A DNA stretch of 64,000 nt, taken from assembly GCA_963748135.1 (NCBI GenBank), contig CAVVHY010000033.1, positions 9,821 through 73,820 of the forward strand, read 5' to 3'. How positions within the stretch are numbered: position 1 is the stretch's first letter; each line of letters opens with the position of its first letter. Below, in pieces: positions 2,441-56,039 of the stretch. This stretch comes from an uncultured Gammaproteobacteria bacterium. GTDB lineage: Bacteria > Pseudomonadota > Gammaproteobacteria > JBGSLN01. The notes under the pieces are model-generated. The model was not told the DNA's origin, did not search any database, and worked only from the letters and a program-made list of their open reading frames with translations. The position numbers and the translations under genes are program-made.

Positions 2441-2697
2441 GCTTGTTGATACTTAAGTTGTAAAAAACTGACAGAACTTACCTTACTTAGTCATTGTCTG
2501 CTATACGTTTACCTGACAAAACCGAGGGCAGGGTTCGGATATGACAGGTAAAATCATTATAGGATAATAGCTGACGTTTTCATTTTGGCTTGGTAGGTCT
2601 AATCAGATGATATGGATAATAACAATGTTCCTTGACAACAGTAGCCCTTCTTGCTTCAATTCCCTAATACCTTAACCATCGAAAGCCATGGATATCA

Positions 2698-3186
2698 ATG
2701 TTTGGTACGCTACCAATGAAAACAATAAAACAAATTATCATAGCCTTAACAGCTATCATGCTTGCTGGTTGTGTCAGTGAAAATTTACCACCGCCTCCCC
2801 CTAAGTCAGATCCCGCTATGACCAAAATAGCCGAATCAGCTGCCGCCGTTAGCGATTCGTTAACCACACTAGAGGGCATTCGCAAGTCAGAGCGGCCTGC
2901 TTACAAAAAGAAATTACCAGACCCAAATGACTTTGGGATGACCTTCATGGGTTCAGTTGATTACACAGGACCAATTGGCCCAATTGTCTACAAACTAGCG
3001 ACTAATAGCCGTTATAAACTGCATGTCATGGGTAACCCACCAGCCATCCCAATCATTGTCCAACTGTATAAAAAGAATGTACCGTTGGCCATGATTTTGC
3101 GTGATGCGGATTATCAAGCGGGTGACAAGGCAGATATCGTGGTAAATAATAAGACCAGGACGATTGAGCTGCGCTATAAGGTGTAG
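2698..3186 (+). CDS. dotD: Dot/Icm T4BSS outer-membrane lipoprotein DotD
   Basis: 162 aa with a lipoprotein signal (LTAIMLAGC). Size matches DotD (about 160 aa). It lies in the dotD-dotC-dotB region upstream of dotC and dotB. Start may be the internal Met at 2716. Confidence 0.6.
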   Translation: MFGTLPMKTIKQIIIALTAIMLAGCVSENLPPPPPKSDPAMTKIAESAAAVSDSLTTLEGIRKSERPAYKKKLPDPNDFGMTFMGSVDYTGPIGPIVYKLATNSRYKLHVMGNPPAIPIIVQLYKKNVPLAMILRDADYQAGDKADIVVNNKTRTIELRYKV

Positions 3187-3249
3187 CTAGCAAATCATCT
3201 ATAAAAATAATAAAAAATTACTATTAATGATATAGACAGGCTTTTTTTA

Positions 3250-3456
3250 GAAACCCCCTCACCCTCCCCTCTCCCCCAAGGGGGAGAGGGATCAAGAAGG
3301 GGAACCCCATAGGTTACTAATTGTTGCAAGGCCGATAATATTTGTATGGCCGATAGTATTCGTAAAGCCCATAATAATTATAATCTGCTCACCCCGAAGG
3401 GGTGAGCCCCACATTCCCCTCTCCCCCTTGGGGGAGAGGGGAGGGTGAGGGGGTTC
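3250..3456. repeat. GC-rich nested palindromic element, copy A (two self-complementary arms around a 110-bp spacer with an inner hairpin gctcaccccgaaggggtgagc)
   Basis: Left arm: gaaaccccctcaccctcccctctcccccaagggggagaggg. Right arm: ccctctcccccttgggggagaggggagggtgagggggtt. The arms are reverse complements, and each arm folds on itself. The same unit recurs at 7188, 28346, 40541 and 46751. Confidence 0.85.
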
Positions 3457-3888
3457 TAATTAAACTAATTATCGTTGTCATAGTTCTTTATGCGCTGGCT
3501 GTTGACCATTTGCAAGTGGGATATATGTCCATAACCAAAATGATAATATCTGTTCACAAAGGTTTCTTGAAAATTTGCACTTATATTGTATAATTGCTAG
3601 TAAAAACCTACCAGTTCAATTTGCTAAAGGAACTAGCTAAATCATAAGGTCGCGCGAACAATTATCAAAGGCTAGTTTAGAAATGTTATCAAAAATCCTT
3701 AAGTTTACAGCAAGATCCAGTCGGCTAAATTATCTTATAAGATTATGTATTTTTGAGCGTGAATACATAAATGCGCTCTCGCAGTATACGTTAATTAATA
3801 TTAGTAGAAAGTTACACAGACTCCACTTTACAGCAGGATAGAATGTTTTATTTCATAATTTTAATTTACTAAACTTATTGGTAAGAAT

Positions 3889-5346
3889 ATGAAGATTGGC
3901 ATAATTGGCGCTGGATGGTATGGGGTTCATTTGGCAATTGCTTTGAGTAAGCAAGGACATGAAGTTGTTTTGATTGATAAAAATCATGATATGTTCTTTG
4001 GTATTTCTGGATCTTTTGGAATAAGGACTCATGTTGGGCCTCATTATCCGCGTTCTTCGAAAACACGAAAAAGTTGCCAGAAATGGTTTAAAGTTTTTTG
4101 TGAAAGATATAAAGACATTATTGTCGATCATAGTTACTCGATATATGCAATTGGTAAGATTGATGCCGATGGACTACCGCCAAAAGTAAGTGTAGGAACT
4201 TTTAAAAAAGTTTGTGCTGAGGCTCAGATAGTTGCTGAAACTGAAAATCCTGATGAGTTGGGTTACAGAAACTTATGGTATCTGGCTGATGTTAATGAGC
4301 CTAGTTTATCTTTAGGAGGTCGGCTTCGTAATAGATTTAGGTCTTATTTAGCAGAAGTAAACATTATGACACGATATAATACAACAGTGACTGATGTTGT
4401 AGTTAAAAATGGAAAAGCTTTGATCTTTTCCAATGATGTAAGTCTGGGGAAGTTTGACTACGTAATAAATGCGACAAGTTACCAAAGTGTATGCCCGTCG
4501 ATTCCTCAAGTTAAGCTTCCGTTTAATACGAAATATCAATGTTGTTTGGCATTCGTCTATAAAGATGAGTATCCTAAATCAACCAAACCATTCTCATTCA
4601 TTGTTCTGGAGGGCGCGTATCCATGTGTTATGCCTTGTGTCGATGGAGAAGGGGCTATAAATAAAAAATATATTTTAACTCATGGCCGGTGGACAATCCT
4701 CGGTTCATTTGATAAGCCAGATGATGCTTATGGTCTACTAAATTCTTTAACTGAAGAAGAATTAACTATTATTCGAAAAAAATGTGAGTTATCAATAAAT
4801 CTTTTTTGGCCAGCATTTGAAAATCGATTTAAATATGTTGGTAGGGAAGTAGCTGTATTAGCAAAATTAGTCACAGATGTCGAATTTAGAAGTGCTGTAA
4901 CCTATCTTACAAATAAAAGAATGATACATGTAGTCCCCGGTAAAATAACAAATGTATTCGATGTAGAAGAAGAGGTAAAAGGATTAATTAATAGTCATGA
5001 TGTAGATAATATAATCTCTAAAGAAGGTGTTACTTATCTTAAAGGTGGTGTTTTGTATTCCGCCATGGAAAAAATCACAACAAGGCCTAGAATACCATCG
5101 AGGAACACTTGTTCAATACAGACTTATAAAACTTTAAGAAATCTGACAGACAATGGCGATGCAAAATCCAAGGATGATTTCTCAATTAGTTATTTTCCAA
5201 AGCGTGACAGAGGATCTTATTGTGACAACAGAAATAGCTTATTCTCAGGATTCTATAGAAAACACAGGAATTCTGTTTCTGGAGACTTAACAAGCAATAA
5301 GTCTGTTGAAGGGCGTGTTATTTATAATTTAGGCAAAAGTATTTAA
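3889..5346 (+). CDS. hypothetical protein with N-terminal NAD(P)/FAD-binding Rossmann motif
   Basis: 485 aa beginning MKIGIIGAGWYGVHLA (GxGxxG dinucleotide-binding motif). No family recognised beyond this. Lies in an AT-rich insertion between dotD and dotC. Confidence 0.5.
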   Translation: MKIGIIGAGWYGVHLAIALSKQGHEVVLIDKNHDMFFGISGSFGIRTHVGPHYPRSSKTRKSCQKWFKVFCERYKDIIVDHSYSIYAIGKIDADGLPPKVSVGTFKKVCAEAQIVAETENPDELGYRNLWYLADVNEPSLSLGGRLRNRFRSYLAEVNIMTRYNTTVTDVVVKNGKALIFSNDVSLGKFDYVINATSYQSVCPSIPQVKLPFNTKYQCCLAFVYKDEYPKSTKPFSFIVLEGAYPCVMPCVDGEGAINKKYILTHGRWTILGSFDKPDDAYGLLNSLTEEELTIIRKKCELSINLFWPAFENRFKYVGREVAVLAKLVTDVEFRSAVTYLTNKRMIHVVPGKITNVFDVEEEVKGLINSHDVDNIISKEGVTYLKGGVLYSAMEKITTRPRIPSRNTCSIQTYKTLRNLTDNGDAKSKDDFSISYFPKRDRGSYCDNRNSLFSGFYRKHRNSVSGDLTSNKSVEGRVIYNLGKSI

Positions 5347-5354
5347 GATTTCCA

Positions 5355-6269
5355 ATGATGAAAGAAGAAAAGAGATACTGGTTAGAGCGTGATTTTGTTT
5401 TAGAGTTGTTAAAACAGGTGCCAGCTCATATATTTTGGAAAGATAAAAAAGGCGTTTATTTGGGCTGTAATGATACTTTTGCTAACGCGCTAGGTTTTTC
5501 ATCTCCAGGTGAAGTCGTAGGAAAAACAGATTTTGATTTGCCTACGACAAGGGAAGAAAGTGAAGCTTTTCGGAAAGATGATAAGGAAGTTATTACTTCT
5601 AAAAAGCCTAAATTAAATATTGAAGAGGAGCAAACTTTGCCAAATGGCAACAAGGTATCTTTGTTAACAAATAAAGTCCCTTTATTAGATAGAAATAAGA
5701 ATGTAGTTGGGATCTTAGGCATATATCATGATATAACCTGGCAAAAAGAATTGTTCAAAAGAGAAAAGCAAGCCATTGCAGATAAAGTAAAAGCTGAGCA
5801 AGCACAAGCAGATGCAGAGTTGCAAGCAGAACGCATGCAAGCTCTGGCCGCCACAATTGCACACGAATTACGAACACCTCTCGGTTCAATCGATAATATG
5901 GCCACATGGCTTGAATTAATCGCAAGTAAATTAAAAGATGGAGAACTTAAACAAAAGCTTACACACGCGTATGAACTCATATCTGGTGAGACGGCTAAAA
6001 CCAATGCATTTATTACCATCATTCTGGAAAGCTTATCTGAACTTAAAGATAAATCGTTTGAAAGATTATCAATGAAAGATTGTATTAATGAAGCCGTTGA
6101 TCGCTTTCCTTATGAAGCTGATGAAAAGAAATTTGTGCACACTGATAACGTAAATGATTTCGACTTTATGGGTAATCGTGAAATGGTAATACATGTGCTA
6201 TTTAATCTTATAAAGAATGCACTATACTTTGGAACAATATTGGCTGAAAAGTTGGGCACAAGATGCTGA
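5355..6269 (+). CDS. PAS-domain sensor protein with histidine-kinase dimerisation/phosphoacceptor motif (truncated HATPase?)
   Basis: PAS-like segment (FWKDKKGVYLGCNDTFANALGF...GKTDFDL). H-box ATIAHELRTPLGSI. N-box-like NLIKNALYF at the C-terminus. ORF ends before the G1/G2 ATP-binding boxes. Confidence 0.55.
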   Translation: MMKEEKRYWLERDFVLELLKQVPAHIFWKDKKGVYLGCNDTFANALGFSSPGEVVGKTDFDLPTTREESEAFRKDDKEVITSKKPKLNIEEEQTLPNGNKVSLLTNKVPLLDRNKNVVGILGIYHDITWQKELFKREKQAIADKVKAEQAQADAELQAERMQALAATIAHELRTPLGSIDNMATWLELIASKLKDGELKQKLTHAYELISGETAKTNAFITIILESLSELKDKSFERLSMKDCINEAVDRFPYEADEKKFVHTDNVNDFDFMGNREMVIHVLFNLIKNALYFGTILAEKLGTRC

Positions 6270-7086
6270 GGTAGATGATGCTGTTATGGGGACTTTGACT
6301 TCACCAAAGCTTATGTTACCTATCAAACATCTTATTGATCAAACTGACAATGATGCTCGCTTTCTTGAAGTATCGTGTGCTTGCTTCGATCAGAAAATGC
6401 CGGGGAAAACAGGCTTAGAAGCGCTGAAGAATTTAGAAGATACACACTTTAAGACAGCGATGCTAACAGGTCAAATGCCACCTGATGATGCCATTGAAAA
6501 GCTTAACGAAAAAATATTCGATGTCTATGTCAGTAAGCATCAGCCGCAGGCGATTAAACGAATTGCAGAGCTTATTGAAAGGGCACGGCAAGTTTATTTT
6601 AAAAGTGGTTGTGATTACATCATTTCTAAAAATGAAAGATTACGTAAGATCCTCCCTAACGAAAAGTTCAATGATTTCTTTAATAAGTTTGTTAAAGACA
6701 ATGGCTATTGTGAAAGTTATATGATCGATGACTTTTGTAGCTTTGTGTTATTCGATAAGCATATGTTGGCGGCTATCTTGGCAGTGCTGCATGATGAAGA
6801 GTTTGATGCCTATTATCAAACTGCGTCCATGGCAGACCAAAAGCCTGATGAAGATATCTTAAAACTTATTAAAGATCGCAAGGCATTTCCATTTTTCTAT
6901 GGCCATGATATCGCTAATATTGAACCCAAAGATTGGGGTAGTTATTTAGTGCCCGCAACCAAGCTTGAGGGCTCCGATATTTTTTATTCTGTCATTGATG
7001 ATGTAAAAAAATATGGGATTGATACGGAAGGGCTGACAAGCTATGCAGATTTCTTGGCAAAGCAAGATCCATTTGAATATGTTTAA
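6217..7086 (+). CDS. hypothetical protein; overlaps the 3' end of the sensor-kinase ORF in another frame (possibly a frameshifted continuation or a separate gene)
   Basis: 289-aa ORF overlaps 5355..6269 by 53 bp. No recognisable HATPase G-boxes or receiver motif. Family unknown. Confidence 0.35.
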   Translation: MHYTLEQYWLKSWAQDAEVDDAVMGTLTSPKLMLPIKHLIDQTDNDARFLEVSCACFDQKMPGKTGLEALKNLEDTHFKTAMLTGQMPPDDAIEKLNEKIFDVYVSKHQPQAIKRIAELIERARQVYFKSGCDYIISKNERLRKILPNEKFNDFFNKFVKDNGYCESYMIDDFCSFVLFDKHMLAAILAVLHDEEFDAYYQTASMADQKPDEDILKLIKDRKAFPFFYGHDIANIEPKDWGSYLVPATKLEGSDIFYSVIDDVKKYGIDTEGLTSYADFLAKQDPFEYV

Positions 7087-7187
7087 GTCCTATTCGAATC
7101 TGTTTGAGTTCTATCAATGCTATGTGTCTATATATTTTGAAATCAAAATCAAAAGTAGTGTTAATAATATGGGCAGGTTTGTTTTTA

Positions 7188-7292
7188 GAAACCCCCTCAC
7201 CCTCCCCTCTCCCCCAAGGGGGAGAGGGATTAGAAGGGAAACCCCACATTTCCCTCTCCCCCTTGGGGGAGAGGGGAGGGTGAGGGGGTTTC
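7188..7292. repeat. GC-rich nested palindromic element, copy B (compact form, 8-bp spacer)
   Basis: gaaaccccctcaccctcccctctcccccaagggggagagggattagaagggaaaccccacatttccctctcccccttgggggagaggggagggtgagggggtttc. Overall palindrome with self-folding arms. Confidence 0.85.
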
Positions 7293-7338
7293 TAAATCAA
7301 CTTTTGTCTCTAGTTTGTATTGTCTTACCTATAATCCC

Positions 7339-7488
<150 letters not shown>

Positions 7489-7556
7489 TTCCCCTAACTG
7501 CTTATTGACTTTAGGGCTGCAAATTGCTTCAATGATTTGCAATTGCACTCAGGTTT

Positions 7557-8519
7557 GTGGCTATGGCTATATATCGTATAACGACTAAAATTCTTCCAAT
7601 CGCATTTCTCGCTTGCGCCATCGGCCTTTCGGGATGCACACCTTTTAGCACAACACCAGAAGGTGGGACGGCGACACTGAGTGATCTACAAAGATTAGGT
7701 ACAACAACAGCCAGAAAGATACGCTTAAAACGAATATCGGACATGCGTTATGCTGCCATCAAGGATACTGCATTAAGTATCGGTGCCCGATCGGGTTTGG
7801 CTTGGCGGGCACGACAAATTGATAAAGAGCTTAGTGCTGATGCCCAGAATTTGCGCTCAACCTATAATTTTTATGGCATGCTGATGGACAATGATGTGTT
7901 GCCACCCGTGTTGGCGGAGGCGCAGCATACCTTGAATCTGGCGAGTCCGGAATCGATTCGCTTGTCATCTAAGATTTACAAAATTGTGGCCCAAGCGAGA
8001 TTCGTAACTGCACCACCAACTTGGCGCGATTATTTATGGATGGATTATCCGCCTCCGGATTCCCCCAATGCCTCATTACTACCGCGCAATTCACGGGAAG
8101 AGGACGTGTGGAAATTTTATGTGGCTATCGGTTGGAAAAATGGTATTGAACAAGCAAATCATATCTTTGCGGAAAATCTCAATCGTTTGAATCGGGATTA
8201 CAAAGGTATGGCCTTGTATCGTAAGCTTTATGCACAAAATATGGTGAGTGCACCATTTGTTGCCCAAACAAATCTGGGAATTACAGGTGATAGTCAACAT
8301 ATGCGTATTGATGATCGAGTCTTACGTATTACTGCATTGCCGCAATTGAATCTACGGGGCAATACTTGGAAACCTGTGATTGTACCAACGAACCCGACGA
8401 CAAAATTAACCATGCATATCCATGGTGAACATGCTAAGAATGTACAAGTACGACAACACTTAATGAAGACCCCGGTATCGCCACGTGAACCAAAAGGACA
8501 GGTACATATTTCAAAATGA
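7557..8519 (+). CDS. dotC: Dot/Icm T4BSS outer-membrane lipoprotein DotC
   Basis: 320 aa with a lipobox (LACAIGLSGC). Size matches DotC. Stop overlaps the dotB start (ATGA). Sits at the dotD-dotC-dotB position. Confidence 0.7.
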   Translation: MAMAIYRITTKILPIAFLACAIGLSGCTPFSTTPEGGTATLSDLQRLGTTTARKIRLKRISDMRYAAIKDTALSIGARSGLAWRARQIDKELSADAQNLRSTYNFYGMLMDNDVLPPVLAEAQHTLNLASPESIRLSSKIYKIVAQARFVTAPPTWRDYLWMDYPPPDSPNASLLPRNSREEDVWKFYVAIGWKNGIEQANHIFAENLNRLNRDYKGMALYRKLYAQNMVSAPFVAQTNLGITGDSQHMRIDDRVLRITALPQLNLRGNTWKPVIVPTNPTTKLTMHIHGEHAKNVQVRQHLMKTPVSPREPKGQVHISK

Positions 8520-9664
8520 AAAAAAATGACGACATAATGCTGCCAAATGAGCCAACGCGCTTTACGCCAGCACATTTAGATCGCTTATTGGCACACTGCG
8601 AAACACTGGATGCATCAGACATCACCATCCAAACTGGTGAATCGGTCTTTGCGGAGTCGTACGGGCGTTTGCATAGAGTAACGAATCGCAAGTTATCTAA
8701 TACCGAAGTGGGTGATATGCTCAATGCGATCTATGGCCCTAATGGTACGACACAAATCTTAAGCGGTCAGGATGTTGATACCCATTATGAATTCAGACCG
8801 AGCCGGTCTGCACGTTTTCGTTATCGTGTTAATGGCACAGGCTGTCAAGTTGAGGGTCATGATGCCATTCAAATTACCCTGCGTTCGATCCCCAGTACAC
8901 CACCACATCTTGAAGAATTAAATTTGGAACCAGAGATTATGGAGGCCATTGCGCCGGATACTGGCTGTGTATATGTAACCGGGGCGACGGGTTCTGGTAA
9001 GAGTACATTGCTTGCTGCGATTATTCGTGATTTATCAGAAAAGTCCGATGGTAATCGCAAGATTTTAACCTATGAATCTCCGATTGAATTTATCTATGAC
9101 AATATTGATATGCCGACATCAATTGTCAGTCAAACAGAGATCCCACGACATATCCCAAGCTTTGCCGCCGGTGTGCGCAATGCTTTACGCCGTAAACCAA
9201 TGGCTATCCTAGTCGGTGAGGCGAGGGATCAAGATACCATTGCGGCAGTACTTGAAGCTGCATTAACAGGTCATCCATGTTATACCACCTTACATACCAA
9301 TGGTGTTGCGGAAACAATTCGCCGCTTGGTTACCTCGTTTCCTGCGGGGGAACGCCATGGCCGAACCATTGATATCCTGGAGACGATGCGACTGGTTATA
9401 TGGCAAAAACTGGTGCGCTCAGTCGATGGTAAGCGGGTTGCCTTGCGCGAATATTTAGTCTTTAGCGAAGAGGTGAGGGATATATTGCTGGAAGCCCCGG
9501 TTGATAATATTACCGCTGCAACGCGACGCTTGGTGAGAGAGCGAGGCCAAACCATGGGTGAAGATGCCCAGAAGAAATTTGATGCTGGCATAATTTCAGA
9601 GCGCGAATATAAATTATTAATGTCTTTATCCAAGCGCGCCGATCGTGATGCCGAAGTGCCTTAA
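8516..9664 (+). CDS. dotB: Dot/Icm T4BSS ATPase DotB (PilT/VirB11-like secretion NTPase)
   Basis: 382 aa. Walker A GATGSGKST, Asp box ILVGEARD, His box CYTTLHTNG. Translationally coupled to dotC. Confidence 0.85.
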   Translation: MKKNDDIMLPNEPTRFTPAHLDRLLAHCETLDASDITIQTGESVFAESYGRLHRVTNRKLSNTEVGDMLNAIYGPNGTTQILSGQDVDTHYEFRPSRSARFRYRVNGTGCQVEGHDAIQITLRSIPSTPPHLEELNLEPEIMEAIAPDTGCVYVTGATGSGKSTLLAAIIRDLSEKSDGNRKILTYESPIEFIYDNIDMPTSIVSQTEIPRHIPSFAAGVRNALRRKPMAILVGEARDQDTIAAVLEAALTGHPCYTTLHTNGVAETIRRLVTSFPAGERHGRTIDILETMRLVIWQKLVRSVDGKRVALREYLVFSEEVRDILLEAPVDNITAATRRLVRERGQTMGEDAQKKFDAGIISEREYKLLMSLSKRADRDAEVP

Positions 9665-14337: not shown

Positions 14338-14609
14338 ATTTATAATAAAGATAGGACTTACGCAAAACGCGCTATGCTTTGTTAAAAACTCGCTCAAAAT
14401 GCTCATTTATTATATATAAACTGCGCTTTTTCGCTCATTTTTGCCTCGCCTAGCATCGTTTTTCGTAAGTCCTATTTATAATAAAGATAGGACTTACGAA
14501 AAACGCGCTATGCTTTGTTAAAAACTCGCTCAAAATGCTCATTTATTATATATAAACTGCGCTTTCTCGCTCGTTTTTGCCTCGGCTAGCATTGTTTTTC
14601 GTAAGTCCT
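14338..14609. repeat. two tandem copies of a 136-bp unit in the icmV-icmW divergent intergenic region; a perfect 35-bp palindrome at the unit junction
   Basis: Unit 1 (14338-14473) and unit 2 (14474-14609) are about 95% identical. The junction palindrome is cgtaagtcctat-ttataataaag-ataggacttacg (14464-14498). Each unit carries a ttgtta...tatata promoter-like stretch. Confidence 0.85.
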
Positions 14610-14698
14610 AAAAGGGTATAGATCTTGGATTTTATAGGTAATAGCAATTATACTTTCAACATAAGGATAACTTTTATTATTAAATTACGAGAGACACT

Positions 14699-22693: not shown

Positions 22694-23417
22694 TCATGTA
22701 TTGTACATCATCATGCGTTCAATACCGCTTTCAGTCACTACAATTCTATTATCAGGAATGAATTCTTTTAACCGAATGCTAATTTCGATATTGGTCTCAA
22801 AGGTCTTTAAGTTGCGATTATTAATGCCAATCAATGGCGTCTTTAATTGTAATGCTCGACTTAATTCAATTTCATCATGCACCTCAACCAAGACCGCCAA
22901 ATTTAATTTATGTGCCAGCCTTTCAAATTCGTTTAGCTCGGCATCATTTAATGCGGCGACTATTAGTAAAATACAATCTGCACCCAAGACTCTTGATTCA
23001 TAGATTTGATATGGTTCAATAATGAAATCTTTACGTAAAATAGGTAAATCAATACTCTGCTCTAACGGCTCTTAGATATTTGTCATGACCCTGGAAAAAA
23101 TGTTCATCGGTTAAAATAGACAGACAAGTTGCACCAGCGCGAAGATAACTTTGTGCTATTGCAATTGGCTCAAAATGTTCTCTAATAACGCTTTTTGATG
23201 GCGATGCCTTTTTGATTTCAGCAATCACGGCTGCCTTATGTTGCATCACTTTATCATTAATAGCTGCAACAAAATCAAGTGGATTATGTAATTCATTAAT
23301 TTGCTGGCATAAATTTTTCAAGGAGGTCTTTTGCTTACGTTGTTCAACTTCATTTCTTTTATGGGCAATAATCTTATCTAAAATATTATTCATGCTAAAA
23401 CCTATTGCTAAATTCAA
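22694..23417 (-). pseudogene. trpC: indole-3-glycerol-phosphate synthase trpC, disrupted by a frameshift
   Basis: N-terminal ORF (23049..23417) ends ...[12 protein letters not shown]. The next conserved block [28 protein letters not shown] continues in the +1 frame. The C-terminal ORF (22694..22987) starts internally at MGADCILL. Confidence 0.7.
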
Positions 23418-24418
23418 TATATGCTAAAAACTTTGCCTTGGCTTGACCTTCGGCAATAACGCTACGTGCTGATTCAATCCCTTGGGCAATTGATTCGGTA
23501 AGCTCCGCGCAATAGATGGCGGCGCCACTATTTAACAATACAATGTCCAGGGCAGGGCCTTTAACATTATCCAATACATCATTAATTATCGTTAAGCTTT
23601 GCTCAGCACTATTCACCACTAAGGGTTGTAGTGATTGTCGCTGCATACCAAAATCTTCTGGCGCTAACATGTATGCTTTTATGTGGCCTTGATTTAATTC
23701 ACAGACATGAGTTGCTGCGGCGATACTGATTTCATCCAAACCATCTTCAGCGTAGCACGATGAGACTTCGTTGACTGTCTAGGCGCTGATAAACTTTAGC
23801 AAATGGTTGTAACCATTTTTAATCATAGACACCGATGAGTTGGTATTTAATATTTGCTGGATTAGTTAAGGGGCCTAATAAATTAAAGATGGTACGTACA
23901 CCTAATGTTTTTCTAATGTTACGTACATGTTGCATCGCCATATGATGCATGGGGGCATATAAAAATCCAATCCCTAATTCTTTTACAGCTAACGCAACTT
24001 GTTCTGGTGTTAATTCAACATTAACACCCGCCTCGGATAATACATCAGCACTTCCAGATTTGCTTGAAACCGAACGATTGCCATGTTTGGCAACGGTACC
24101 ACTTGCTGCCGCAACAATAAAACTCGTTGCCGTTGATATATTAAAGGTATTACTACCATCACCGCCGGTACCAACAATATCAAGACAATTTTTACTCTGG
24201 ATGGGTATGGGTATGGCTAATTCACGCATGACTTTCGCAGCAGTATATAATTCGGTAACACTTTCACCTTTCATCCGTAAGGCAATGAGGAAAGCAGCAA
24301 TCTCGGTATCGCTCATTTGCGAAGACATAATGGCTAACATCAATTGCTGCATTTCGGTTTCAGTTAAATCTTGAAAATGGATGAGCTTTTGCAAATGTGC
24401 CTGAAATTCAATAGCCAT
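23395..24418 (-). pseudogene. trpD: anthranilate phosphoribosyltransferase trpD, disrupted by an in-frame stop plus a frameshift
   Basis: N-terminal ORF ends ...LIGVYD then TAA. The conserved block PFAKVYQRLDSQRSLIVL follows in the same frame, then TGA. The C-terminal part (DGLDEISIAAAT...) is in another frame. That makes two independent lesions. Confidence 0.8.
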
Positions 24419-28336: not shown

Positions 28337-28345
28337 TTTAGCAAC

Positions 28346-28386
28346 TCCCTCACCCTCTTGGGGGAGAGGGGAGGGTGAGGGGGTTC
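28346..28386. repeat. GC-rich palindromic element, copy C (single-arm hairpin form) directly after the cca stop
   Basis: ctccctcaccctcttgggggagaggggagggtgagggggtt. Stem ccctcaccctc/gagggtgaggg. May serve as a terminator. Confidence 0.75.
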
Positions 28387-54101: not shown

Positions 54102-56039
54102 ATGGGAGTAAGAGCGCAAAACTTCAAAAACCTATTTGCTGATGCCAGAAGCCGCACAATAATTGTTATTACCCTGACAATCGTCTTTATTGGTATTGCG
54201 GCTGGAATATATATCTTCATGCGGGAAAGTGGTGGTCCGGGCACCAAGGCAGAATTGCAGGAAACCCCAGGTGGTATACAAGGTATTCCGGGAAGTTTTA
54301 ATCCTTCAGAGCAATATGCCAAATTGCAAAAAAAGGCTAACCTTGAGCGGGCACAACAAGCCGAGAAATCAGGCGGCAGTGCGATTCCAACGATTATTCG
54401 CTATACCAAGCCTGGTGAAGGGCAAGCCGGAACGACACCGAGCGGTGCACCGTGGCAAGAAGGGCTGGGTTTCCAACAATTGGCGCAAACTCAAGGTCAA
54501 GGGGCACCCAAGGGCTTGGCGATTGAAGAAGTCAAACGTAGTAATTGTTCTGAAAAAGATTTAGCAGAAGCTAAAAAATTAGGGGCGACTGTTGAGGAAT
54601 TACGTGAGGCAGGTTGTAGTGCCGATCAACTGCGTGCCGCAGGCTATAATACTGACCAATTACAAAAAGGCGGTTTCAGTGCCTGCGATCTATTAAGTGG
54701 CGGGCAAGGATTGCGTCCTGAGGCCTTGAAAAATGCTGGCTATAGTGCTGGTGAGTTGCGCGGTGTTGGCTTCAATGCCTGCCAATTGAAACGTGCTGGC
54801 TATAGTGCTAAGCAATTATGTAAGGCGGGTTTTACCCCTGAAGAATTAAAAGGTGTTGGATTTAGTGATAATCAAATCCGACAGGCATGTACTGGAATAC
54901 AAGTTGCCGGTGTCCCAGTATTACCTAGTTATCCGGGTTTGCCATCAGGTGTGACCCCGGATTCATTAAGGGCGGCAGGGTGCTCGCCGGCTGCTCTTGA
55001 GCGAGATCGCAAACAAGGTGTGAGTGCTGAGGCGATAAGACGTTATGTTGGTTGTAATGCATCACAATTAAAGGCAGGCGGTTATACAGCGGCCCAACTT
55101 AGAAAGGCAGGCTTTACCGCGGGTGAATTGAGAGCGGCTGGATTTACACCTAAACAACTTAAAGCTGCTGGCTACACTGCTGGGGATATGTTGGCCGCTG
55201 GTTATACGCCGGATCAACTTAAAAAGGCTGGTTATTCGCCCGATCAAATTGCGAATGGCGAAGATCAAGTGAATGCCTTAGGTTTGCCAACAGGTGTTAC
55301 GCCAGAGTTGCTCAAAAAGAGGGGCTGTGGTGTTGATGCGGTGAAGCAAGCCCGGGCAGAGGGTGTAAGTGCCACCGAGATGCGCAAAATTGGTTGTACT
55401 GCAGCACAATTAAAAGCGGGTGGATATACCGCTAAAGAATTGAAAGACGCTGGTTTCACGGCCGCTGAATTAAAGGCTGCCGGATTTACGGCTGCCCAGT
55501 TAAAGGCCGCTGGTTTTACTGCTAAACAGCTTAAGGATGCGGGTTTCACAGCAGCCGAATTAAAGGCTGCTGGATTTACAGCCAAACAATTAAAAGATGC
55601 CGGTTTTAGTGCGCAAGACCTCAAGGATGCGGGCTTTACTGCCGGAGAACTCAAGGACGCGGGCTTTAGTGCTGCCCAGTTAAAGGCCGCTGGTTTTACT
55701 GCTAAACAGCTCAAAGATGCGGGTTTTTCCGCCGCTGACTTAAAGGATGCCGGTTTTGGCGCCAATGCTTTGAAGAACGCAGGTTATACCGCAGAACAAC
55801 TCAAGGATGCGGGTTATTCAGCACAACAACTTAAAAATGCGGGATTTAGCCCTGCCCAGTTAAAGACGGCCGGTTTTGATGCCAAAGCCCTCAAAGATGC
55901 CGGTTTCACGGCTGCACAGTTGAAAGACGCTGGTTATACGGCCAAGCAGCTCAAGGATGCTGGGTTTAATCCTGCTCAATTGCGCCGGGCAGGTTTTACC
56001 CCATCGCAACTCCGGGGCGCTGGTTTTACCTCTGATTAA
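54102..56039 (+). CDS. icmE: IcmE/DotG N-terminal part: TM segment plus long array of AGF(T/S)AxxLKx decapeptide repeats; ends at an in-frame TAA
   Basis: A TM near residue 20. More than 40 repeats of the DotG-type motif (AGFTAAELKAAGFTAKQLKDAGF...). Stop TAA at 56037-56039. Confidence 0.85.
   Translation: MGVRAQNFKNLFADARSRTIIVITLTIVFIGIAAGIYIFMRESGGPGTKAELQETPGGIQGIPGSFNPSEQYAKLQKKANLERAQQAEKSGGSAIPTIIRYTKPGEGQAGTTPSGAPWQEGLGFQQLAQTQGQGAPKGLAIEEVKRSNCSEKDLAEAKKLGATVEELREAGCSADQLRAAGYNTDQLQKGGFSACDLLSGGQGLRPEALKNAGYSAGELRGVGFNACQLKRAGYSAKQLCKAGFTPEELKGVGFSDNQIRQACTGIQVAGVPVLPSYPGLPSGVTPDSLRAAGCSPAALERDRKQGVSAEAIRRYVGCNASQLKAGGYTAAQLRKAGFTAGELRAAGFTPKQLKAAGYTAGDMLAAGYTPDQLKKAGYSPDQIANGEDQVNALGLPTGVTPELLKKRGCGVDAVKQARAEGVSATEMRKIGCTAAQLKAGGYTAKELKDAGFTAAELKAAGFTAAQLKAAGFTAKQLKDAGFTAAELKAAGFTAKQLKDAGFSAQDLKDAGFTAGELKDAGFSAAQLKAAGFTAKQLKDAGFSAADLKDAGFGANALKNAGYTAEQLKDAGYSAQQLKNAGFSPAQLKTAGFDAKALKDAGFTAAQLKDAGYTAKQLKDAGFNPAQLRRAGFTPSQLRGAGFTSD

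Follow-up and report, generated by a model that had tools for sequence, protein, structure and literature searches.

The 64-kb stretch of DNA examined here (the window in what follows), which belongs to a contig of an uncultured Gammaproteobacteria bacterium (CAVVHY010000033.1, positions 9,821 to 73,820), encodes Dot/Icm type IVB secretion genes and carries five GC-rich palindromic repeats. On the evidence of their sequence, these repeats are a fully palindromic, four-block variant of a family described in Escherichia coli under the names BoxC, PIT (potential intrastrand triplex) and TMECO. The initial annotation of the window had taken them for a novel family, not recognised from Legionella or Coxiella. 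This view has to be given up, since they are built from the same three blocks as the E. coli elements and since TMECO has already been listed in five Legionella pneumophila genomes, a match to a repeat family known from the taxon being what the annotation itself had named as evidence against novelty. Its broader description of a multi-copy, palindromic intergenic repeat resembling repetitive extragenic palindromes (REP) or miniature inverted-repeat transposable elements (MITE) is upheld.

The family has gone under four names since 1992, and the papers of Bergler (1992), Bachellier (1996) and Hoyne (2000) are reportedly earlier accounts of it. Here, the lead to the literature came from the common variant GGAGAGGGTTAGGG, which pointed to Holder 2015 (PMC4666352) and Kaplan 2016 (PMC5100583); GGGGAGAGGGG and CCCCTCTCCCC, both 11-mers, led only to G-quadruplex papers on eukaryotes or viruses, and a combination of Legionella with RAYT or REP to nothing relevant for the taxon. 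According to Holder 2015 (PMC4666352), the first description, as BoxC in E. coli, dates from the 1990s and was followed in 2000 by a second one, as a PIT element; under the name TMECO, the same authors report 3610 copies in 262 proteobacterial genomes, with 23 copies in strain MG1655 and a single copy apiece in five L. pneumophila genomes (their Supplementary Table S1). The same E. coli sequences have been presented as a G-quadruplex-hairpin-duplex switch, HPG1/HPG2 (Kaplan 2016, PMC5100583).

The published TMECO pattern reads CCCTCNCCC-N3-6-GGGNGAGGG-N3-GGGNGAGGG. When its second loop is allowed to be 2 or 3 nt long (CCCTCNCCC-N3-6-GGGNGAGGG-N2-3-GGGNGAGGG), the pattern has five matches in the window against none expected (Table 1), and the window units align block for block with the TMECO copies of E. 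coli MG1655 (NC_000913). The first loop is CCTTGG in all five matches and, with 6 nt, lies within the published range of 3-6 nt. What keeps the window copies from matching the strict pattern is their second loop, which in all of them has 2 nt (GA) and not 3. With the E. coli elements, the window repeats have in common the blocks CCCTCNCCC, a loop, GGGAGAGGG, a short loop and GGGTGAGGG in the same order, a multi-copy and strictly intergenic occurrence with strong conservation among copies and without an associated mobility gene, the presence of both single units and inverted pairs that fold into a palindrome of ~100 nt (copies 1 and 2 being the inverted pairs of the window), hairpin-keeping deletion derivatives, and loci linked to rearrangement.

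The differences concern the second loop, which is TTA (type A) or CCG (type B) in E. coli, and an additional 5' block, CCCTCACCC followed by TC, which turns each window unit into a perfect hairpin whereas the E. coli unit is a hairpin with a free G tail. The pairs also differ in polarity, being head-to-head with the G tails outward in the window and tail-to-tail in E. coli, and the window copies, unlike E. coli BoxC, have an AT-rich terminal stem extension (TTAGAAAC) and, in three cases, adjoining heptamer arrays. A fourth block within 8 nt was found in 59 of 189 copies of the genome set, which had been selected on the GA variant, versus 4 of 156 copies from general viral contigs. As the GA variant and the fourth block thus occur together, the window repeats are filed as a palindromised variant of the known family. 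Searches of the whole window against Rfam gave no family at gathering score, and permissive thresholds returned generic hairpins only (miRNA precursors, Antizyme_FSE and whalefall-1, the latter with 19 bits against a gathering score of 37), which were judged to be chance matches.

Within the window, the 22-mer CCCTCACCCTCCCCTCTCCCCC occurs seven times with up to three mismatches, against none in 100 shuffles, and the inner 11-mer occurs ten times against 0.38 expected, so that the recurrence of a common core at five loci, as initially reported, is confirmed. Two of these loci hold long forms and three hold short ones (Table 1); no further copy is present in the 9 kb past the window end. The unit is made up, in this order, of C block 2 (CCCTCACCC), TC, C block 1 (CCCTCTCCC), a loop, G block 1 (GGGAGAGGG), GA and G block 2 (GGGTGAGGG), and is flanked by TTAGAAAC and GTTTCTAA, with the AT-rich extension at its ends. 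In each long form, the two 46-nt arms at the ends are 100% complementary to one another (7184-7229 with 7251-7296 in copy 2), and the same holds between the two loci (3246-3291 with 7251-7296). They are 100% identical between these loci, and each contains a self-complementary 24-mer, CCCTCTCCCCC-NN-GGGGGAGAGGG; the description of arms that are reverse complements of one another as well as self-complementary was therefore accurate.

Copy 1, which begins 64 nt past the dotD stop codon, corresponds to copy 2 with a nested insertion of ~104 nt in its centre (~3309-3412) that contains a tandem repeat of 18 nt along with a small GC hairpin; copy 2 is located upstream of dotC. Copy 3, which begins 10 nt past the cca stop codon and lies between convergent genes, lacks the inner C block and has its outer C and G blocks paired with each other. 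Copy 4 is found 430 nt upstream of icmS, between divergent genes, and copy 5 after the dotL fragments. The outer arm and the remainder of copy 5 are parted by a nested element of ~260 nt with its own paired hairpins (46545-46716). The locus first given for this copy (46751-46788) is real but its limits were not correct, the repeat ending at ~46800 and having its outer 5' arm 290 nt upstream. All copies are intergenic, as had been noted, and the peptide SPPWGRGEGEGV, read in five places, illustrates the spurious open reading frames (ORF) to which they had been said to give rise. TA abuts the ends in four of the five copies. A contrast in composition with the AT-rich surroundings, originally called sharp, does exist but is only moderate, the GC content being 41.9% for the window and 37-47% for the five intergenic regions.

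Two side observations were made at these loci. The element nested in copy 5 is a second, unrelated palindromic element that occurs once in the window and consists of two hairpins of ~62 nt each (ATCCCGGAA...TCCGGGAT and ATTCCGGGT...ACCCGGAAT). Short-read unitigs (Logan contigs L001, L119 and L121; run ERR11523667) end inside the repeats at positions 3268, 3435, 7211 and 28382, indicating that the repeats fragment assemblies of the source organism.

Table 1. Positions of the repeat copies, of their matches to the TMECO pattern (second loop 2-3 nt) and of associated features in the window
Feature	Position	Strand	Description
Copy 1, long form	3246-3460		head-to-head dimer: minus-strand unit 3256-3290, plus-strand unit 3417-3451
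Copy 2, long form	7184-7296		113-nt near-perfect palindrome: minus unit 7194-7228, 22-nt centre, plus unit 7252-7286
Copy 3, short form	28343-28386	+	TMECO pattern at 28347-28381
Copy 4, short form	40538-40593	+	perfect 24-bp hairpin
Copy 5, short form	46760-46803	+	inner hairpin, then GGGTGAGGG block
Copy 5, detached outer arm	46476-46500	+	25-nt perfect inverted repeat of 46791-46815
TMECO pattern match	3256-3290	-	
TMECO pattern match	3417-3451	+	
TMECO pattern match	7194-7228	-	
TMECO pattern match	7252-7286	+	
TMECO pattern match	28347-28381	+	
Heptamer tandem array, (AGTTTCC) x 19	7340-7471	+	starts 44 nt 3' of copy 2
Short degenerate heptamer run (CTAGTCT, CTAGTTC, CCAGTCA)	40599-40634	+	starts 6 nt 3' of copy 4
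Heptamer tandem array, (TCTAGTC) x 23	46804-46962	+	directly 3' of copy 5; two complementary units at 46476-46487
dotD	2698-3186		
Three-gene segment bracketed by copies 1 and 2	3461-7183	+	FAD/NAD-binding oxidoreductase, PAS/HisKA protein, unknown-function protein
dotC	7557-8519		
dotB	8516-9664		

Folding predictions gave every copy an energy far below that of shuffled controls, as RNA and as DNA, which agrees with the hairpins initially anticipated. As RNA, the 113-nt copy reaches -112 kcal/mol (z -12.6) and the 61-nt copy -50.7 kcal/mol; the corresponding values as DNA are -64 (z -12.2) and -29.6 kcal/mol. The RNA hairpins of the copies range overall from -24 to -113 kcal/mol. The minimum-energy fold of the long copy is a single 45-bp hairpin; the hairpin-within-hairpin structure proposed in the initial annotation is possible as an alternative fold but does not correspond to the predicted optimum. 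The short forms are deletion derivatives, and they still fold. In copy 4, CCCTC/GAGGG has become CCATC/GATGG, a compensated change by which the third G-run is lost and the pairing kept. In copy 5, CCCTCTCCCC/GGGGAGAGGG has been replaced by CCTCAGCCCC/GGGGCTGAGG, with two adjacent pairs compensated and the homopurine tract lost. Since both copies retain Watson-Crick pairing, what persists in this genome is the potential to form hairpins or cruciforms and not that to form triplexes or quadruplexes.

The motif is not specific to Legionellales, as judged from its distribution in sequence collections. When one genome per species was scanned, the exact 23-mer GGGGAGAGGGGAGGGTGAGGGGG was found in at least 117 stretches of species-representative genomes belonging to at least 10 phyla. 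Among the matches listed are Delta-, Alpha- and Gammaproteobacteria, Nitrospirota, Planctomycetota (Kuenenia), Cyanobacteria, Acidobacteriota, Methylomirabilota/Rokubacteria, Omnitrophota, Elusimicrobiota and Chloroflexota. In nearly all of the listed genomes the 23-mer occupies the 3' side of a hairpin whose 5' arm reads CCCCTCACC, a variable bulge and CCCTCTCCCC. A looser core is present in at least 120 IMG/VR viral contigs, where the commonest form among the matches listed is CCCTCTCCCC-loop-GGGGAGAGGG-TTA/CCG/TTG-GGGTGAGGGG. The variant with GA as second loop accounts for one of ~160 in an unbiased sample of viral contigs, yet occurs in at least 117 genomes. A metagenome scan with the Legionellales-type end TAGAAACCCCCTCACC gave 18 TMECO-like sequences among the 120 matches listed, all from GC-rich organisms, and the AT-rich palindromic end was found in none of these 18. 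A stem variant with a G-A mismatch (CCCTCGCCC opposite GGGAGAGGG), which most of the E. coli copies carry (Table 1 of PMC4666352), recurs in 22% of the viral-contig copies and in 10% of the genome copies, and its recurrence argues for something beyond hairpin stability.

Two of the repeats bracket an interruption of the Dot/Icm genes. An insertion of 4.4 kb, composed of copy 1, three unrelated genes, copy 2 and a heptamer array, splits dotD from dotC-dotB. In the two nearest relatives with fetchable DNA (DotC 55% and 61% identical), dotD, dotC and dotB run contiguously, 7-14 nt apart, and there is no TMECO-like block within 13-21 kb. The asymmetric centres of copies 1 and 2 place these copies in direct orientation, and the arrangement fits a circle integrated through a resident copy, a composite unit, or a later colonisation of two new gaps. 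It also fits the published association of the motif with local genome instability and gives some support to the recombination hot-spot that had been listed among the candidate functions. In E. coli, inverted pairs give deletion derivatives that still fold, and TMECO loci were found to be rearranged more than control sites among 56 strains (Holder 2015, PMC4666352). Further marks of instability in the window are the nested insertions of copies 1 and 5. Copy 5 is located at the left edge of another interruption, in which two genes, one encoding an F-box/ankyrin protein, lie between the dotL fragments and an OmpA-family gene that we take to be icmN. In L. pneumophila, icmO and icmN are adjacent.

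The reading that we favour, with somewhat better than even confidence, is one at the DNA level, in which the repeats are REP-like, non-coding, selfish or recombinogenic palindromes of the BoxC/PIT/TMECO family that have undergone a lineage-specific expansion in the four-block form. Wherever replication, repair or transcription exposes single strands, these palindromes would extrude very stable hairpins or cruciforms in vivo, the G-rich strand alternatively folding into an intrastrand triplex or a G-quadruplex. The extruded structures would stall or misalign replication and supply dispersed homology. One would then expect deletions that leave a hairpin, as in the short forms, along with nested insertions, an expansion of short tandem repeats close by, and junctions of rearrangement or insertion, of which the 4.4-kb segment between dotD and dotC may be one. 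The rearrangements would then have been caused by the repeats and not merely colonised by them.

Several points weigh against this reading. The copy counts are those of the window and of a further 12 kb of source-genome flanks, which bears on any claim of genome-wide abundance, and the repeats may have colonised gaps made by an unrelated insertion instead of having caused it. The flanking TA belongs to the palindrome itself, and a target-site duplication cannot be clearly made out; as no mobilising enzyme is known for the family, we infer that the repeats are selfish and mobile from their copy number and distribution. Finally, the exact conservation of the 23-mer across phyla together with the conserved G-A mismatch variant point to a sequence-specific recognition by some factor, and a purely structural explanation does not account for either.

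A different possibility, which we regard as unlikely, is that the repeats act once transcribed, as very stable 3'-UTR hairpins that insulate transcription units, either as weak or bidirectional terminators or as barriers to 3' exonucleases, as proposed for REP. The location of copies 1, 3 and 5 just downstream of stop codons (dotD, cca and the dotL fragments, respectively) would suit such a role, as would the energies of the RNA hairpins, the UUUCU that follows the stem on both strands in the source genome and, by rough gene calls, the 17 of the 117 listed loci that lie between convergent genes versus 6 between divergent ones. Copy 4, however, lies between divergent genes, and the tail after the stem (TTTCTAAA or TTCTAATT) has by eye only 4 T in 8 bases, short of the hairpin followed directly by at least 5 T in 8 that is expected of an intrinsic terminator; in other phyla no T-run follows the stem. 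A consensus terminator scan of positions 2600-7700, inside which both long copies lie, flagged neither of them, and copies 3-5, checked by eye only, are without a sufficient T-run, so that the terminator function initially suggested finds no backing. In E. coli, the elements display no strand-orientation bias (Holder 2015, PMC4666352), and PIT elements had neither promoter nor terminator activity nor any effect on RNA polymerase in the work of Maher and colleagues, as far as it is related in Holder 2015 (PMC4666352). The G-rich strand might alternatively be a regulatory or structural switch between a purine triplex or G-quadruplex and a hairpin or duplex, or a site for a conserved protein, which seems to us very improbable. 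A pattern of four runs of at least 3 G spaced 1-7 nt apart has six matches in the window against 0.125 expected, and all six are in these repeats (four G arms and two C arms). The G-rich 23-mer is exact across phyla while the C-rich arm varies both in sequence and in spacing, a comparison biased by the fact that the collection scans fixed the G-rich arm. The E. coli sequence forms both a triplex and a G-quadruplex in vitro (PMC4666352, PMC5100583), but the triplex is that of the single strand and gives way to a duplex once the complementary strand is present, and in vivo dimethyl sulfate footprinting in E. coli lent no support to a stable triplex (Holder 2015, PMC4666352). In the window, the fourth block provides a full Watson-Crick hairpin that competes with triplex and quadruplex and would be expected to be favoured over an intrastrand triplex of the isolated G-rich strand. 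Moreover, copy 4 (40541-40590) lacks the third G-run and does not match the quadruplex pattern, copy 5 lacks the homopurine tract, the hairpins of both being kept by compensated changes, and the flanking genes have no common function.

It is quite unlikely, in our estimation, that the long forms are non-autonomous MITEs or REPINs moved in trans by an enzyme encoded elsewhere, either of the RAYT/IS200-like Y1 type, which would act on the hairpins, or of the IS630/Tc1 type, which would insert them at TA. Features that recall such elements are the identity of the 46-nt arms at two loci, the conserved and genome-specific TTAGAAAC/GTTTCTAA extension with TA at the ends of most copies, the REPIN-like dimer, the gene segment bracketed by two copies, and the presence of the motif on IMG/VR contigs, which is compatible with horizontal spread. 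Terminal inverted repeats are indeed present, but the TA is indistinguishable from the palindrome itself. No transposase or recombinase was detected in the 51 window ORFs scanned against Pfam or NCBIfam (seven long ORFs being left out), so that the REP-associated transposase-like protein invoked in the initial annotation was not found there. None was detected near the 117 listed loci either, where all-against-all clustering of the ORFs located up to 2.5 kb away yielded generic metabolic families only. The motif was likewise rejected as an insertion-sequence end or a gene-specific cis element, the clusters comprising only AMP-binding enzymes, ABC transporters, acyl-CoA dehydrogenases and similar products. 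An empty-site comparison at cca had a sole close homologue locus (L122), which is not syntenic. MITEs such as the Correia elements of Neisseria are 100-200 nt long, have long terminal inverted repeats abutting TA, are intergenic and can be co-transcribed with their neighbours. The window repeats are like them in size, in terminal inverted repeats abutting TA, in location and in possible co-transcription, and unlike them in that their inverted repeats are self-complementary, their short forms are single hairpins and no transposase family is known to serve them. An analogy only is offered by the mobile GC clusters in the mitochondrial DNA of yeast, GC-rich palindromes that are dispersed in intergenic DNA less rich in GC, tend to nest and are linked to deletions, but that are organellar and unrelated in sequence. 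With REP/BIME and REPIN-RAYT systems of Enterobacteria and Pseudomonas, the repeats share the short GC-rich extragenic palindromes, the inverted dimers, the preference for the 3' ends of genes and the spurious ORFs. No RAYT gene was found among the scanned window ORFs, and the repeats differ from these systems in their ends, which read TTAGAAACCCCC and GGGGGTTTCTAA and lack the GTAG or CGTC head that is typical of most REP superfamilies according to PMC3733652; and whereas REP families are lineage-specific and vertically inherited, the core of the window repeats is common to several phyla. No transposase was reported around the E. coli copies (Holder 2015, PMC4666352). We consider it very improbable that the repeats are the recombination site or terminal repeat of an unrecognised cassette-moving system, the three-gene segment between dotD and dotC having entered via one palindrome, either by Campbell-type integration of a circle with one copy or as a composite unit bracketed by two copies. 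If such a system did exist, a widespread enzyme recognising the G-rich 23-mer would explain both the spread across phyla and the occurrence in viral contigs.

Heptamer arrays of the C[CT]AGTYY type are found 3' of three of the five copies, and arrays next to the motif also occur in unrelated contigs (loci L125, L127, L172, L176 and L217). In ~1.9 Mb of loci from other organisms that bear the TMECO motif, 7 is by far the commonest tandem period, with 83 arrays, no other period reaching more than 24. Within 200 nt of the motif the density of the heptamer arrays rises only ~2-fold, and they were not counted as part of the element. The heptamer arrays of the window resemble the STRR heptamers of cyanobacteria.

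Other features of the window were recorded in passing. The dotL/icmO gene (44119-46468) appears to be distributed over at least three ORFs (44119-44577, with an FtsK_SpoIIIE match; 45352-45759, with a TraG-D_C match; and 45650-46468), which could reflect frameshifts, a pseudogene or an assembly error in an otherwise complete Dot/Icm cluster. In the region 23049-24418, two separate ORFs (23819-24418 and 23395-23739) make up a split trpD, and the ORF 23049-23417 matches only the first 106 of the 254 positions of the indole-3-glycerol-phosphate synthase (trpC) profile; the genes of the tryptophan pathway may be decaying. Eukaryote-like genes typical of Legionellales effectors encode a Ser/Thr protein kinase (34257-36155) and an F-box protein that has ankyrin repeats (49167-50873); the F-box/ankyrin gene is the one in the above interruption that separates the dotL fragments from the OmpA-family (icmN-like) gene. 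Just upstream of icmW, a 136-nt AT-rich unit with inverted repeats is duplicated in tandem with 96% identity (14338-14610). In-frame coding repeats of 12 nt occur at 48239-48369 in an unknown minus-strand ORF of 655 aa, and repeats of 30 nt, encoding decapeptides of the GFTAAQLKAA type, at 55391-56020 in an ORF of 645 aa (54102-56039). The latter lies between icmK/dotH and a TrbI-domain ORF and is presumably DotG/IcmE.

What had been supposed to be a new repeat of Legionellales thus turns out to be mostly a false lead, now cleared up, and the repeats should be masked in annotation, as short-read assemblies break there and spurious ORFs arise from them. For the family itself, the data extend to exact occurrences of the 23-mer in at least 10 phyla, with the core of the motif also present in viral contigs, and indicate that a fully palindromic variant exists, whose divergent copies preserve Watson-Crick pairing over triplex or quadruplex potential. 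The succession of dotD, the insertion and dotC-dotB provides a clean natural case of such repeats at a rearrangement junction in an otherwise conserved secretion-system operon.

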